Positions 29,040-36,957 of a stretch of 64,000 bases of DNA are shown in pieces; positions within the stretch are counted from its first letter, which is position 1; the number at the start of each line of letters is the position of its first letter. The position numbers were made by a program, and so were the translations under genes. A model generated the notes under the pieces. That model was not told the origin of the DNA, searched no databases, and saw nothing but the letters and a program-made list of their open reading frames with translations. Source of the DNA: an uncultured Chloroflexia bacterium (GTDB lineage Bacteria > Chloroflexota > Dormibacteria > Aeolococcales > Aeolococcaceae); the NCBI GenBank assembly GCA_963697585.1, contig CAVOOO010000009.1, forward strand, positions 741,248-805,247, written 5' to 3'.

Positions 29040-29078
29040 TAGCATATCGTCGACAGAACACCCAGAGGTACCCCAGCC

Positions 29079-29804
29079 ATGGACGACAACCCCACCGCAG
29101 ATTGGTTCGCACACGTCGAAGGAGACCCCTGGGCGCACAGCCTGCGGCGATTCGCCGCTCGCGCCCGGCGCGGGGCCGGTTTCGACCCGACCCACGAGGA
29201 GCCCGGCAGTCCCTTCGGCGGCAACCCCTTCAGCTGGACTCCGGGGCAGCCTCACCGCCGGCCGCCCTTCGGCGGGCCGCGGTTCGGCCGCTTCGGGCCC
29301 TTCGGCCCCTTCGGTCCCGGCTCCGGCCGCGGCCCGCGGATGCGCCGGGGCGATGTCCGTGCCGCCATCCTGGCCCTGCTTCGCGAGCAGCAGCGCAACG
29401 GTTACCAGATCATCCAGGAGATCGAGCGCCGCAGCAGCGGCCTCTGGAAGCCGAGCGCTGGATCGGTCTACCCCGCCCTCCAGCAGCTCGAGGACGAGGG
29501 TCTGATCGAGGCCGTCGAGGATGCCGGCCGGCGTGAGTTCCGGCTCACCGACGCCGGACGCGCCTACGCCGACGCGCACCCCGACGAGCTGGCGGCGCCC
29601 TGGGCATCGGTCGCCGGGTCGATCGACGAGGACTCGCGCTCGCTCTTCGAGATCATGGCCGCGGTCGGCGCCGCCACCATCCAGGTCGGCCAGGCCGGCA
29701 GCGAGGCGCAGGTGGCCAGGGCCCGGCAGCTCCTGGCCGACACCCGCAAGGCCCTCTACCGGATCCTCGCCGAGGAGGACCCCGACACGGCCCCGAAGGC
29801 CTGA
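29079..29804 (+). CDS. PadR-family transcriptional regulator with Gly/Pro/Phe-rich N-terminus
   Basis: RRGDVRAAILALL...GYQIIQEI...PSAGSVYPALQQLEDEGL, and C-terminal LYRILAE. Confidence 0.9.
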   Translation: MDDNPTADWFAHVEGDPWAHSLRRFAARARRGAGFDPTHEEPGSPFGGNPFSWTPGQPHRRPPFGGPRFGRFGPFGPFGPGSGRGPRMRRGDVRAAILALLREQQRNGYQIIQEIERRSSGLWKPSAGSVYPALQQLEDEGLIEAVEDAGRREFRLTDAGRAYADAHPDELAAPWASVAGSIDEDSRSLFEIMAAVGAATIQVGQAGSEAQVARARQLLADTRKALYRILAEEDPDTAPKA

Positions 29805-30122: not shown

Positions 30123-30548
30123 ATGAGGGACGTGACAAAGGCGTTGAAGGCGTTTGCGGTGATCGTCGCCGGCGTCGCCGCGCTCGCAGCCAGTGAGGCC
30201 CTCGCCGCCGGGCTCGGCTCCGGCAGCCAGAGCCTGGGAAGCGGGCAGCAGACGGTCTCCGCCTGCACCTCCGACACCCTTCGGGTGAGCTACACCACCG
30301 CCTATTCGGCGGCGCCGGCCGGCGGCTACGCGGTGACCGGGGTGACCGTCACCGACACCGCCCCCACGCCGAGCCTGGCCGCGTGCGCCGGTGAGACCTA
30401 CCGCGTGACCCTGCTCTCCGCGTCCGGGGCCTCCCTCGCCGAGGCCAGCGGGGTGGTTCCGAGCGGTCTGGCCAGCTTCTCCCCCACCGGGTTCGCAACG
30501 CCGGTGGACGCCGCCGCGGTGACCGGGGTGGCGCTGGTCCTCGGGTAG
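30123..30548 (+). CDS. Secreted fibre/pilin-like subunit A (SipW-associated, two Cys)
   Basis: Signal peptide ending ALA|AGL. Paralog of the two downstream genes (SLG-x-G, C, YRVTL, SLAEA, VTGVA-x-VLG). Confidence 0.75.
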   Translation: MRDVTKALKAFAVIVAGVAALAASEALAAGLGSGSQSLGSGQQTVSACTSDTLRVSYTTAYSAAPAGGYAVTGVTVTDTAPTPSLAACAGETYRVTLLSASGASLAEASGVVPSGLASFSPTGFATPVDAAAVTGVALVLG

Positions 30549-30888
30549 CCCAGGCTCCCGGACCTCACCCTCTCGGGCAGCTCGGGCTCCCGAGAGCCCT
30601 GCACCGCCGCTCCACCAGCTCCGGACTGGTCAGTCACCTCGTTCGAGGCGAAGCGCGCCATCACATCGCAGGCGCCAATGTCGGAGCTCTGTGTCACGAG
30701 GGCGCGACCCGCGTTACCTGAATGGTGGCGCGGTGACGTCAGGGCAGCGAGGTGCTGACGCGTTGCGAGCACCAAATGGTGCAGATGCACTATGGCCTCG
30801 TGGGAAGCCTTGCCCCGGGGCGGGCACCAACCCCCATCAACACCCACCAGAAACTCTCGGCAGGAACAGCGGAGCGAGGAAGAAGCAG

Positions 30889-31305
30889 ATGAAGAGAATT
30901 CTCGGAGCCATCGCCGCCGGCGTGGTTGCCTTCAGCGGCATCTATGCCCTGGCGGCCAGCCTGAGCGTCAGCAGCAACAGCCTGGGCGCGGGCACCTCGG
31001 TGGTCGCCTCCTGCACCGCCGACACCCTGACCGCCACCTACGGAACCCTCAGCTACTCCTCGACGCTGCCGGGCTACACGGTCACCACCGTGGTGATCAA
31101 GGACAACGCGACCTCGCCGAGCTGGACCACCTGCAACACCCTCGCCTACCGGGTCACCCTCGAGACCACGGGCAACGCGTCCCTCGCCGAGGCGACCGGC
31201 ACGGTGAGCGGTGTCACCAACACCACGGGCTCCTCGTTCACCGCCACCTTCACGGCGCAGAGCGCCGCCCTGATCACGGGCGTCGCCGTCGTCATCGGCG
31301 GCTGA
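30889..31305 (+). CDS. Secreted fibre/pilin-like subunit B
   Basis: Begins MKRILGAIAAGVVAFSGIYALA|ASLSVSSNSLGAG; two Cys, Thr-rich beta-strands, RBS GAGGA. Confidence 0.8.
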   Translation: MKRILGAIAAGVVAFSGIYALAASLSVSSNSLGAGTSVVASCTADTLTATYGTLSYSSTLPGYTVTTVVIKDNATSPSWTTCNTLAYRVTLETTGNASLAEATGTVSGVTNTTGSSFTATFTAQSAALITGVAVVIGG

Positions 31306-31384
31306 TAGCCCCAACTCGAGCCATCCGGCGCTGAACGCGTCGCAACCCACCTGAATTCACGATAGACACGGAGCGAAGTCCAAC

Positions 31385-31774
31385 ATGAAGCGAATCCTCG
31401 GAGCCGTAGCCGCGGGCGTGGTCGCCTTCAGCGGCATCTACGCCCTGGCGGCGAGCCTCAGCGTCACCAGCAACAGCCTGGGCGCCGGGACCGTGGCCGT
31501 GGCCGCGTGCCAGTCCACCGCCATCAACGCCGCCTACGCGCCGCTCGCGTACACGGCCGGGACCGGCTACACCACGACGACGGTCACCGTGACCGGGCTG
31601 GCCAGCACCTGCAACAACGTCCCGTACCGGATCACCCTGTACCAGACCGGCGGCGCCTCCCTGGCGGAGGCCACCGGCACCACGCCGGCCACCGGAACGA
31701 CCTTCACCACCTCCGCCTTCACCGCCGTGAGCGCCGCCGCCGTGACCGGCGTGGCGGTCGTGCTGGGCGGCTGA
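31385..31774 (+). CDS. Secreted fibre/pilin-like subunit C
   Basis: The first about 36 aa are nearly identical to subunit B, with the same Cys pair and C-terminal TGVAVVLGG. Confidence 0.8.
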   Translation: MKRILGAVAAGVVAFSGIYALAASLSVTSNSLGAGTVAVAACQSTAINAAYAPLAYTAGTGYTTTTVTVTGLASTCNNVPYRITLYQTGGASLAEATGTTPATGTTFTTSAFTAVSAAAVTGVAVVLGG

Positions 31775-31795
31775 TAACCTCGCTTCGCTCCGCCA

Positions 31796-31829
31796 GCGGG
31801 TCCTGCGGCGCCTCAGCCGCAGGGCCCGC
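31796..31829 (+). other. 14-bp GC-rich stem-loop between subunits C and D
   Basis: GCGGGTCCTGCGGC-gcctca-GCCGCAGGGCCCGC with one G-U pair and no strong U-tract. Confidence 0.6.
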
Positions 31830-31855
31830 CGGCCATTTCTCGGAGTGATGTGGAG

Positions 31856-32248
31856 ATGAGCAGGTCCCGCGCGATAGTCCGATTCCTCGCCACCGCCGCC
31901 GTGCTGGTGGTGGGAACGGCCGTGGTCGCACGGGCGGCGGGCCTGACCACCTCGGGGGACCGCATCGGGGCGGCTCAGGTCGCCACGCCGCGCTGCACCT
32001 CGGCCGCCGTCACCGTCGTGGAGACGGTGACCACCACCTACGTCACCGGGGTCACGGTGAGCGGCATCCCCTCCTCCTGCGGCAACGCGACCATCGCCAT
32101 GACCATGGCCGAGGGGACGACGGTCTACTACACACCAGCCACCCAGACGGTTCCCGCCGCCGGCGGTCAGGTGGTGTTCGCCATCCCCTCGGGCGACGTC
32201 CCGGTCACCGCAGCCGCGGAGGCCGATGTGGTGATGACCGGGCCATGA
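31856..32248 (+). CDS. Divergent secreted fibre/pilin-like subunit D
   Basis: Signal ending ARA|AGL, then IGAA...C...VTGVTVSG...C. Same two-Cys pattern as subunits A-C. Confidence 0.72.
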   Translation: MSRSRAIVRFLATAAVLVVGTAVVARAAGLTTSGDRIGAAQVATPRCTSAAVTVVETVTTTYVTGVTVSGIPSSCGNATIAMTMAEGTTVYYTPATQTVPAAGGQVVFAIPSGDVPVTAAAEADVVMTGP

Positions 32249-32955
32249 AGCTCCGCTACGCCGTGCTCGCGCTCGGGGCTCTGCTCTGCGTCCCGACGGC
32301 GTCCGCGGCGAGCCTGGGCCTGGCCGCGCAGAACCTGACCCCGGTCCGGACCTGCATCCTGAGCGGCTATCCCACCACCACCACCAACGAGATCGACGCC
32401 CAGGTCGAGCAGGGCAACGCGGGCACGAACTACGGGACCGCCGCCACCATGGAGGTCCAGTCCAGCTACAACGCCAACATGCGCGTCTACATCGAGTTCC
32501 TGGTGAGCGGCTGCTACCCGGCGATCCCGACCGGCGCCACCGTGCGGGCCGCCACCCTCCGCCTCTACGCGACCGCGGTGCCCACGGGCGCCTGCCGGAC
32601 CGAGGACATCTTCCCGGTGACGGCAGCCTGGACCGAGGCGGGGATCACCTGGACCAACCAGCCGTTCGGAACCACGCTCAACAACCCGGCCACCGGGTAC
32701 ACCGCGCAGATGCAGGTGGGCACGACCTGCACCACCAACAAGGCGGCCGGTTACGTCAGCGGTTGGACGGTCACCACCGACGTCCAGAAGTTCGTCGCCC
32801 AAACCGCCACCGACGAAGGGTGGATGATCCGCGACAGCGCCGAGCTCACCGCGGCCGGCACCGCCTACCACGCCACCTACCAGGCCAAGAACGGGGAGAC
32901 CGCCAACGCCACCGAGGACCCGCAGCTGGTGATCACCTACGTCGACGTGCCGTGA
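32245..32955 (+). CDS. Secreted DNRLRE/CBM96-like domain protein with AASL N-terminal strand (candidate tip adhesin)
   Basis: ASA|ASLGL, then DAQV...NYG...RVYIEF...IP-x-GATV-x-x-ATLRLY...WTE-x-x-ITWTNQP...PQLVITY. ATGA overlap. Confidence 0.78.
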   Translation: MKLRYAVLALGALLCVPTASAASLGLAAQNLTPVRTCILSGYPTTTTNEIDAQVEQGNAGTNYGTAATMEVQSSYNANMRVYIEFLVSGCYPAIPTGATVRAATLRLYATAVPTGACRTEDIFPVTAAWTEAGITWTNQPFGTTLNNPATGYTAQMQVGTTCTTNKAAGYVSGWTVTTDVQKFVAQTATDEGWMIRDSAELTAAGTAYHATYQAKNGETANATEDPQLVITYVDVP

Positions 32956-33965
32956 GCGAGGTCGGGACCCCGTCGATCTCCCGGGGCACGCTGCGGCCCT
33001 TCCGTGAGCTGGGCCTGACCTTCGCGGCGCTCGGCGAGCTGGGCGCGGTCGTCGACCCGCTGCGCCCGATGGTCTCCACCCTCCTCGACCGCCGGCCGAC
33101 GGCGCGCCCGCCGGGGGCCGCCGGTGACGGGCTCGCCGGAACGGAGGCCTCGCGCGCGCCCGCCTCCGTGCCCATTGCCACCGACCGTCTCGACTCCGCC
33201 GGCGAGCACGCCCGTCCGCTGGCCCGGCGGCTTCTCGCCAGCCTGCGCCGCCCGGGGAACATCGCCTTCTTCGGAGTGCTGATCGTGGTGCTGACCGCCT
33301 GGTGGGTCGAGCTCCGGCCGACCACCCTGCTGGGCGGCCCCGCCACCTTCATCACCGTCCGGGGCATCTCGATGCTGCCGACGCTGAAGACCGGCGACTT
33401 CGTGCTGGCCGAGGCGCAGCCCTCGTATCACCCCGGCGACCTGGTCGTGTACCGGGTCCCCAAGGGCCAGATCGGAGCCGGTGACGACCTCATCCACCGG
33501 ATCGTCGCGGGCAATGCCAGGGTGGGTTTCACGCTCAAGGGCGACAACAACCCAGCCCCGGACCCGTGGACGGTGCCGCGCAGCGACATCCTGGGGAAGG
33601 AGGCGGTGGTCCTTCCCGGGTTCGGCAGCACCCTGCTGGTCCTGCGCAGCCCCCTCTTCGCCGGGCTGGCGGCCGCCCTCATCGCCATGTGGGTGGTGCT
33701 CAGCCCGCCGGAATGGCTGAGGGGGAAGAGGCCGGCGGTGAAGGCGACCGCGCCAGCGGCGGCAACCGCGGCGGCGTCGCCGCCGGTGCCGGCGGGCGTT
33801 GCGGTCGAGCCCTCGCCGGCGACCGTCAGCTTGGAGGCACCCGCCCAGCGCGTCTCCCGCGCGAGGCCGCGTCCCCGCCTCGATCGGGCGGTCCGGCCGC
33901 CCTCGCGGGCTCCGGCGCAGCCTCGCCCGCGGCGACCGGCGCCGCCCGGCAACCGGGAGGCCTAG
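32952..33965 (+). CDS. Signal peptidase I, SipW/ER(S26B)-type
   Basis: GISMLPT (catalytic Ser), GDLVVY, LIHRI (His in place of Lys) and KGDNN, with flanking TM helices. GTGA overlap with the upstream gene. Confidence 0.88.
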   Translation: MSEVGTPSISRGTLRPFRELGLTFAALGELGAVVDPLRPMVSTLLDRRPTARPPGAAGDGLAGTEASRAPASVPIATDRLDSAGEHARPLARRLLASLRRPGNIAFFGVLIVVLTAWWVELRPTTLLGGPATFITVRGISMLPTLKTGDFVLAEAQPSYHPGDLVVYRVPKGQIGAGDDLIHRIVAGNARVGFTLKGDNNPAPDPWTVPRSDILGKEAVVLPGFGSTLLVLRSPLFAGLAAALIAMWVVLSPPEWLRGKRPAVKATAPAAATAAASPPVPAGVAVEPSPATVSLEAPAQRVSRARPRPRLDRAVRPPSRAPAQPRPRRPAPPGNREA

Positions 33966-36327: not shown

Positions 36328-36957
36328 ATGGGCCGGGTGATCCACGTCCGGGTGCGCGGTCTCGACCCCAGCCGGCGGGATGCCGCCCAGGCGCGGTTCG
36401 AGGAGCTGGTGCGCCGGCGCGAGTGGCGGGACGGCCATCCCTGGCTGGCCGACGAACGCTCGGCCGGGCTCTTCCCCCAGCTCTTCTTCGACGACCAGCG
36501 CACCGCCATGACCTGGCAGGAGCCGGCGGGAGCACCGCTCTCGGCGGCCACCTTCATCCGCGTGCTCGGCGACGAGACCGACGCGCTGGCCGTGCTCTTC
36601 GTCTTCCGCGACCTCTCCGAGCACTTCGGGCTCTCGATCGAGCTGCGCGATCCCGACAACCCGATCGCGAAGCTGCGCCGGGTCGAGATGGAGAAGGGGC
36701 GGCTGCCCGGCGGCCGTCCCCTGGAGGCGATCCTGGTGCGGCGCTCCATCTTCAAGAAGCTGCCCGACGGGCGCCGCATCGAGCTCTTCCCGCCCCGTGC
36801 GCTCGCCGCCGCGTACGGGGTCGCCCGCGACCCCGACCATCGCGGCTGGAGCTTCCTGGTCGCGGGGATGCGCGGCGAGGCCCCCGACTTCTTCGAGGCC
36901 GAGGCGGAGGCGATGCGGATGCGACGAGGGCTCGACAGCCTGGGGCCGGCGGGGTGA
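36328..36957 (+). CDS. Hypothetical protein translationally coupled to dtd
   Basis: Good GC3-biased codon usage, TACAAT-N6-ATG, and a stop overlapping the dtd GTG. Confidence 0.7.
   Translation: MGRVIHVRVRGLDPSRRDAAQARFEELVRRREWRDGHPWLADERSAGLFPQLFFDDQRTAMTWQEPAGAPLSAATFIRVLGDETDALAVLFVFRDLSEHFGLSIELRDPDNPIAKLRRVEMEKGRLPGGRPLEAILVRRSIFKKLPDGRRIELFPPRALAAAYGVARDPDHRGWSFLVAGMRGEAPDFFEAEAEAMRMRRGLDSLGPAG

Follow-up and report, generated by a model that had tools for sequence, protein, structure and literature searches.

Small two-cysteine secreted proteins encoded with an archaeal-type signal peptidase in a Dormibacteria genome: a candidate donor-strand fibre operon

The window analysed here, a 64,000-nucleotide stretch of contig CAVOOO010000009.1 (positions 741,248 to 805,247 of the forward strand; assembly GCA_963697585.1, an uncultured peat-soil bacterium of the Dormibacteria, Chloroflexota), contains at 30123-33965 a six-gene operon that raises a simple question: what does a cell make from five exported proteins that are encoded together with a signal peptidase? 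Four of the five, here called A to D, are small paralogs; the fifth, E, has a DNRLRE/CBM96 domain, and the last gene, F, encodes the peptidase. The answer favoured below, on the analogy of TasA, TapA and SipW of Bacillus subtilis and of the archaeal AbpX and Tafi systems, is that the operon probably builds a chaperone-free fibre whose subunits are joined by donor strands; the polymerisation step is carried over from those systems, and to the reading as a whole we give about an even chance.

Four paralogs of a large unnamed family

The genes for A (30123-30548; 141 aa), B (30889-31305; 138 aa), C (31385-31774; 129 aa, of which about 107 would remain in the mature protein) and D (31850-32248; 132 aa, with a GTG start) lie in tandem on the forward strand, as do those for E and F. 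A and B are variants of a major class of subunit, C is the conserved major subunit, and D belongs to a minor class. A sequence-only reading of this stretch had described four tandem secreted paralogs of 129-141 aa with two cysteines each, A to C ending in TGVA-x-V-x-G and D being divergent, and both the sequences and their alignment bear this out. In C the cysteines are Cys42 and Cys76, and the C-terminal strand reads VTGVAVVLGG. Charged residues are very scarce in the mature subunits, in which Thr, Ala, Gly and Val abound and one Cys pair is conserved; mature C has a single basic residue, an Arg, and a single acidic one, and since it contains no Lys, Lys-based isopeptide cross-links are unlikely in it.

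Scored with a profile of 63 outside homologs, from which the proteins of the window were left out, A, B, C and D reach 110.4, 126.9, 130.5 and 37.2 bits, respectively; the top score among 1000 shuffled versions of D is 5.5 bits. Because a profile made from outside homologs recognises all four, D far above its shuffles, they are true paralogs whose similarity goes beyond chance. The family to which they belong is large and has no name in the databases. None of the four matches a Pfam or NCBIfam model, and when 64 diverse family members were scanned, no model from either collection matched more than two of them. Searches of PDB sequences with profiles of 30 and of 64 members returned nothing relevant, and in a protein atlas the neighbours of the family are all unnamed clusters, with no usable match among the named ones. 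The Atlas model of C, a predicted structure, is a folded domain (pTM 0.62). No paper describing the family or its motif was found in the literature searched.

A profile search against 1.84 billion cluster representatives gave 1782 clusters (at 50% identity) with E ≤ 1e-3 and 675 with E ≤ 1e-10, mostly of 125-145 aa among the 150 matches listed. The source names of these relatives are 'hypothetical protein' or absent; where an origin is named, it is a bin of Dormibacteria, Limnocylindria, other Chloroflexota or Actinomycetota. The family is present in 5 of the 121 sampled genomes of the window's phylum, in none of four genomes of the same taxonomic family and, in the phylum to which an actinomycete carrier belongs, in 10 of 301 genomes; the genome from which the window comes (3.2 Mb, 87.8% complete) has four copies only, all in this operon. 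In the tree, the minor subunits, which carry a T-P-R-C motif also present in D, form a clade of 18 rows (support 100/100) apart from the major class, and both phyla occur in each. A, B and C are major-class duplicates found in a group of Dormibacteria-labelled and closely related loci (15 rows, 99/99), with C the ortholog of the single major subunit of the Limnocylindria-type loci.

No longer, fused forms of the subunit were found, on weak search evidence; three apparent fusions among the representatives were rejected as frameshift artefacts. Two proteins, P0230 (323 aa) and P0265 (295 aa), have a subunit-like start followed by a long acidic, Cys-containing extension, and may be natural enlarged variants. 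A mean-field coupling analysis (364 rows; effective number of sequences, Neff, 241) gave top pairs that are short-range or gap artefacts, and yielded no signal for residues 23-37 because those positions are too conserved.

The shared N-terminal segment and the linked peptidase

E (32245-32955, forward strand; 236 aa) is a secreted protein that matches the DNRLRE model NF033679 with 74.9 bits (cut-off 34) and CBM96, PF24517, with 66.1 bits (cut-off 26), and it has a weak PDB match to 8wab. F (32952-33965, forward strand; 337 aa, with a GTG start) matches TIGR02228, the archaeal-type signal peptidase I, with 66.2 bits (cut-off 51.85). These matches agree with the earlier description of a DNRLRE-like protein followed by a Ser/His signal peptidase, and the coordinates likewise agree that the last three genes are joined by 4-nt overlaps, at D/E and at E/F.

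What A to E have in common lies around their predicted cleavage sites. Each has a hydrophobic leader followed by A-A-(S/G)-L, six residues, and then L or I; the signal reads EALA|AGLGSGSQSLGSG in A, YALA|ASLSVSSNSLGAG in B and ARA|AGLTTSGDRIGAA in D, and in E TASA|ASLGLAAQNLTPVRTC stands ahead of the lectin-like domain. Written for all three substrate classes (major, minor and DNRLRE), the common segment is (A/G)-x-A|A-S-L-x-(L/V)-x-S-x-x-L. Among 358 distinct rows of major subunits, position -3 is Ala in 50% and Gly in 49%, -1 is Ala in 99%, +1 Ala in 94%, +2 Ser in 80%, +3 Leu in 95%, +5 Val in 43% or Leu in 40%, +7 Ser in 69%, +10 Leu in 91% and +11 Gly in 92%. The 31 rows of minor subunits have the same N-terminal pattern, and 41 of the 44 DNRLRE orthologs read (G/A)-x-A-A-S-L-x-L-x-S-Q-x-L-T, followed by Cys. 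The cleavage site proposed earlier is supported by the small residues at -3 and -1 and is predicted in C at A22|A23; by the (-3,-1) rule, cleavage at (A/G)-x-A|A would leave each mature protein starting with A-S-L-x-(L/V)-x-S-x-x-L. Conservation of the segment extends 10-12 residues beyond this predicted site.

The segment is not tied to one kind of protein. In E the Pfam match begins at residue 44, so that the segment stands outside the domain. In an actinomycete with a 4.1-Mb contig, a 204-aa Thr/Ser/Pro-rich protein (L107 5288-5902, reverse strand) replaces the DNRLRE protein and has the same N-terminal segment. Being outside the domain of E and present on a Thr/Ser/Pro-rich protein as well, the segment is a portable module rather than part of one fold. 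When a profile of the first 42 residues was compared with all six-frame open reading frames (ORFs) of the genome, B, C, A, D and E ranked first, in that order, and the rest did no better than an E-value of 0.7; within this genome, the segment occurs only on A to E.

The signal had also been claimed to be unlike the SipW-cognate class, and here too the claim holds: none of A to E reaches E ≤ 1 on any NCBIfam signal model, including TIGR04088 (cut-off 19 bits), while a TasA-like protein of the same genome (L060:1456-2154, with a leader ending in FASFTD), which served as positive control for that model, passes it with 19.5 bits. Nor do A to E show a class III (type IV/Flp) signal; their leaders consist of basic residues, a hydrophobic stretch and A-x-A, and the mature N-terminus is polar.

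The motifs of F are Ser140 in GISMLPT, His182 in IHRIV, and GDNN at 197-200, boxes that we take to be the Ser/His pattern of SipW and Sec11-type enzymes and not the Ser/Lys one. Two TIGR02228 paralogs of the genome have the same boxes, and the solved chains nearest to F are those of eukaryotic SEC11A/C. Together with the TIGR02228 match, the motifs substantiate the assignment to the SipW/S26B type, and the gene is tightly linked to those of its putative substrates. By reading, two hydrophobic spans flank the catalytic domain; in addition, F has a 100-aa N-terminal extension that begins at the stop codon of the DNRLRE gene and is kept in nine Dormibacteria-labelled or closely related loci. On the SipW equivalog NF046067, F scores 21.3 bits, under the cut-off of 190, as do the TasA-linked paralogs, with 60.5 and 92.4 bits.

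The genome encodes one signal peptidase of the LepB type (TIGR02227, 129 bits) and four TIGR02228 enzymes. Of the three TIGR02228 enzymes other than F (loci L060-L065, at C9:699447-700722, C8:243927-244908 and C8:75976-81391), two adjoin a TasA-like gene that is positive for PF12389 (the leaders end in FASFTD and in FSLFSA), and the third has two proteins with LAAWNAYTE (TasA-type) leaders 4-5 kb away. In the peptidase tree, 22 operon-linked enzymes lie on one side of a branch with weak support (70/58) and long outgroup branches. To judge from these sequences, F is an extra, specialised peptidase, genetically locked to A to E, which it would presumably cleave.

Conservation, hairpin and transcription of the operon

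The same gene order is seen in 45 loci from species-representative genomes: one or more major subunits, a divergent minor subunit, the DNRLRE protein and the peptidase. Of these, 43 can be assessed, two ending too early; the peptidase is found in 43/43 and the DNRLRE gene in 40. A second collection, ten further loci from actinomycetes and hence from the second phylum (eight assessable), has the peptidase in 6/8 and the DNRLRE gene in 4/8, and a third, 17 metagenome loci around a 39%-identical member (11 assessable), has them in 11/11 and 10/11; two of the peptidases in this last collection are upstream and divergent, and one is 3 kb downstream. The counts sustain the earlier proposal of a single conserved operon linked to an S26-type peptidase. 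The remaining flanking genes are shared by no more than 8 of these 45 loci, all of them from close relatives. A 4-nt stop/start overlap joins the minor gene to the DNRLRE gene in 45 of 52 loci, and the DNRLRE gene to that of the peptidase in 37 of 50. Some loci depart from the common layout: in L017 (2206-4702) a tandem duplication of the minor-DNRLRE pair, copied as one unit, precedes the peptidase, and in L015 and L034, both Dormibacteria, the DNRLRE gene is missing and about 180 nt separate the minor subunit from the N-terminal extension of the peptidase that comes next.

Between C and D, at 31785-31848 on the forward strand, lies a GC-rich intercistronic RNA hairpin with an inner 14-bp stem at 31796-31829. 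Its folding energy is -49.2 kcal/mol (z -6.2), and none of 200 shuffles folds as well; the stretch after gene A folds no better than shuffles (z -0.47). At the C-D position, 19 of 43 loci have a perfect stem of at least 12 bp, compared with 16 of 2534 control windows; for stems of at least 9 bp the figures are 25 of 43 and 153 of 2534. The hairpin sequences are unrelated between lineages; within nine close sequences, compensatory changes are seen in 2 of the 25 hairpin pairs, and nine hairpins chosen for their long stems have z between -2.6 and -5.3. A scan for sigma-70 promoters and terminators gave no sites, and Rfam gave three matches, all far under the gathering scores. In the pap and fim operons a stem-loop after the major subunit gene raises the share of the major subunit. 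For the cellulosome, too, stem-loops are reported to set the ratios of subunits within an operon (PMC4423207).

RNA contigs from two runs of one study cover part of the operon. Over B they span 30808-31620 at depth 213 (run X14) and 30863-31620 at depth 49 (X19); from 31697 they extend to 32936 at depth 34 (X14) and to 32376 at depth 16 (X19); and in X14 one lies over the gene of a PadR-family regulator directly upstream (29062-29495, depth 119), these being contig depths, which cannot rank genes. The DNA run of the same study has a depth of 12-23 across the 16 kb, the part over the operon lying at 12-16. Outside the operon, the PadR gene and a downstream MFS gene, the flanking bins of the RNA runs mostly have a depth of 0-7, one bin reaching 11. 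This unevenness argues for transcription rather than carried-over DNA, and the operon is apparently transcribed. A further RNA run, X20, contains a small share of the stretch, no bin exceeding a depth of about 1.6, and was counted as no evidence. Adapter letters stand at two of the contig ends, 29062, which is 17 nt before the start of the PadR gene (X14), and 30863, which is 26 nt before the start of B (X19). Such ends are possibly the 5' ends of transcripts; if so, B to F would have a promoter of their own in the 340-bp gap between A and B. The stretch was detected in 19 runs at no less than half of the sampled words, and whole or in part in 20 rows from 16 studies; the runs are labelled peat, bog, wetland and soil.

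The PadR regulator (29079-29804, forward strand; PF03551, 72.4 bits) may control the operon, and its membership in it is doubtful. It is preceded by BacA and a FUSC/ArAE exporter, and an MFS transporter and a TetR regulator follow the operon; downstream of the TetR gene is a 209-aa ORF (36328-36957, forward strand) without a Pfam family. No gene for a sortase, usher, chaperone, ATPase or type IV pilin was found among the neighbours checked, no LPXTG was read in A to E, and the only sortase of the genome is on another contig. As far as A to E and the neighbouring genes go, this matches the sequence-only reading, which had seen no sortase motif, prepilin signal, usher or ATPase.

What the operon may build

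The operon can be pictured as a fibre system complete in itself, for the surface or matrix of a cell that lacks an outer membrane. A to E would be exported by their Sec-type leaders and then cut by F, and the freed N-terminal segment would serve as a donor beta-strand, inserting into the next subunit; in this way the subunits of about 107 aa with one Cys pair -- C, with A and B as variants -- would form a thin fibre without the help of a chaperone. The hairpin after the major gene would keep the mRNA of the major subunit in excess, and translational coupling of D, E and F would provide these in small, matched amounts. D would be an adaptor. In E the donor segment would precede a domain that is complete without it; like TapA, E could prime or cap one end of the fibre and tie it to acidic polysaccharide. 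That E may bind such a polysaccharide is suggested by the founding member of CBM96, which is reported to bind alginate (PMC9971899). E may thus be a nucleator, a tip or a matrix-binding end piece. More speculatively, cleavage by F would be what releases the donor strand, so that the fibre would grow from a membrane-tethered base. In AbpX and its homologs, the conserved residues right after the cleavage site belong to the donor strand (AbpX preprint); by analogy, the A-S-L-x-L segment would be a donor strand of a different chemistry, lacking the aromatic and acidic residues of AbpX-type proteins, and not a processing signal alone.

Several kinds of evidence support the fibre reading. The subunit genes are linked to those of the peptidase and the DNRLRE protein, and one segment, exclusive to the operon, is found on unrelated folds. 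The peptidase is a specialised one, the composition of mature C fits, and RNA contigs lie over B to E. The genetics are pilus-like, with the old major/minor split, the hairpin, the 4-nt overlaps and the duplicated pair of L017. Finally, there is the literature: donor-strand loci of the TasA superfamily bring together major and minor subunits, a tip that varies and a TIGR02228 peptidase (AbpX preprint and Tafi paper), and TapA donates its N-terminus to TasA from a gene whose stop overlaps the start of sipW (PMC10151520).

A number of points weigh on the other side. The searches of Pfam, NCBIfam and PDB sequences gave no link to a known fibre, and hhalign against nine TasA-like proteins (a thin profile) aligned only 17 columns, in the hydrophobic region of the signal, with a probability of 55%. 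The hydrophobic positions +3, +5 and +10 do not alternate perfectly, unlike those of a textbook donor strand. Because A-x-A|A would also suit a LepB-type peptidase, the sequence does not imply dependence on F. In two of the eight actinomycete loci a subunit gene stands alone, with no peptidase; the operon encodes no membrane or wall anchor, and the RNA evidence is at the level of contigs and from one study.

Some of these points would be expected if A to E were non-polymerising proteins, monomers that are secreted or lie on the surface, such as a coat or a group of adhesins accompanied by a polysaccharide-binding protein, with the segment as only a recognition or sorting tag for F. The missing homology to known fibres, the lack of anchor or assembly machinery in the locus and the existence of lone subunit genes all favour such a set, as does the position of the motif beside the cleavage site, where it resembles a peptidase recognition element. 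Against this reading, conservation extends to +10 to +12, farther than signal peptidases are known to contact their substrates; a major/minor split, a hairpin after the major gene and minor and accessory genes that are coupled and expressed at a low level, as would be the case here, are features of filament operons, and the locus has the layout of described donor-strand filament loci. On balance a non-polymerising set is possible but unlikely.

In another explanation the mechanism would be the same, but the subunits, rather than being a family apart, would belong to the TasA superfamily, as extremely reduced and divergent forms whose jelly-roll has been trimmed. In common with tapA-sipW-tasA of B. 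subtilis, a dedicated archaeal/ER-type peptidase (ER, endoplasmic reticulum) is encoded with its substrates, one N-terminal segment stands on structurally different substrates, and an accessory protein with a complete domain bears the segment and has a stop codon that overlaps the start of the peptidase gene. With the AbpX and Tafi loci it shares the succession of major subunit, minor subunit, variable tip and TIGR02228 peptidase, often with a regulator nearby, so that both the architecture and the peptidase match those of AbpX, Tafi and TasA loci. There is also a hydrophobic-small-A-G-T element at a similar distance from the cleavage site, the consensus of the present family being LGAGT, as seen in B and C, and the TasA-like proteins of related genomes having F(A/T)AGT; and members of the superfamily are often linked by HHpred or fold comparison alone (AbpX preprint).

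Against such a descent stands the outcome of the model searches, which also agrees with the earlier view of a fibre family distinct from that of TasA: PF12389 matches none of the four subunits and none of the 64 diverse members, and it does match two other proteins of the same genome. The hhalign comparison found nothing beyond the signal. At about 107 aa the mature subunit is shorter than mature AbpX, which has 163 aa, and than the other named subunits of the superfamily, which have roughly 150-230 aa, and the aromatic amino acid in position 2 and the acidic one in position 4 that are conserved in AbpX-type proteins are missing. We regard a reduced TasA as rather improbable. The differences from B. 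subtilis go further, since the subunits match TIGR04088 no more than PF12389, have a Cys pair in their small mature form, and begin with a strand of the type ASLxL instead of A-F-x-D; the accessory protein is a CBM96/DNRLRE protein and not TapA-like, the gene order differs, and F is far under the SipW cut-off. Unlike the AbpX and Tafi loci, the operon has no DUF5305 accessory and no membrane-anchor genes, its leaders are of the Sec and not the Tat type, and there is neither an acidic, calcium-type donor strand nor a detectable sequence relation; F has two hydrophobic spans, where the AbpX-linked enzymes are reported to have ten helices. The originality that had been claimed for the operon stands for the subunit family, which is unnamed and fails the TasA and SipW-signal models, and does not stand for the layout of the locus, already described for filaments of the TasA superfamily.

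Two further comparisons are of use. Chaperone-usher pili such as Fim, Pap and Csu, to which the present system can be likened, have small beta-sandwich subunits with one disulfide, an N-terminal extension on major and minor subunits, a lectin at one end and a stem-loop after the major gene that raises its share; but no chaperone or usher was found in or near any of the 45 loci surveyed, and the lectin-like E itself bears the donor segment. Those pili are, moreover, structures of diderms; the host here has a sortase, and a sortase generally goes with a single-membrane envelope. The SipW-cognate signal classes of NCBIfam, TIGR04088 and also TIGR04089 and TIGR04090, resemble the present case in that a special signal is found on proteins encoded beside an archaeal-type signal peptidase. 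As for a surface-active or amyloid-like coat of the kind made by chaplins or hydrophobins, in which small uncharged two-Cys proteins form a layer instead of a strand-exchanged fibre, the charge-poor Thr/Ala/Gly/Val-rich composition with its Cys pair and the presence of several paralogs would suit it, but it is barely credible in view of the absence of sequence similarity to named families, the folded domain modelled for C, and its failure to explain why lectin-like E has the segment and why the peptidase is linked.

The donor-strand fibre also has a stronger form, which we put forward tentatively and consider doubtful. The subunits would then be a separate structural class, miniature (about 107 aa) and disulfide-stapled, and their fold would have no relation to the jelly roll of TasA; polymerisation would be triggered when an ER-type peptidase that has co-evolved with them cuts the signal peptide, the fibre would grow from a membrane-tethered base with a CBM96 lectin at its far end, and such fibres would have a wide distribution among uncultured Chloroflexota of peat and soil (Dormibacteria and Limnocylindria) and among Actinomycetota.

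Dormibacteria and Limnocylindria are abundant soil lineages; to our knowledge they are uncultured, and we know of no described cell-surface structure in them. For both, the operon is a concrete candidate for a surface or matrix structure, and one that was found in the RNA libraries of a field study. The presence of four archaeal-type peptidases in one genome provides a natural system for studying how such enzymes tell their clients apart. If the subunits do polymerise, the donor-strand filaments of single-membrane cells would gain a building block of very small size, and the combination of a dedicated archaeal-type peptidase with a shared N-terminal strand would be a general design that different subunit families have come to fill.

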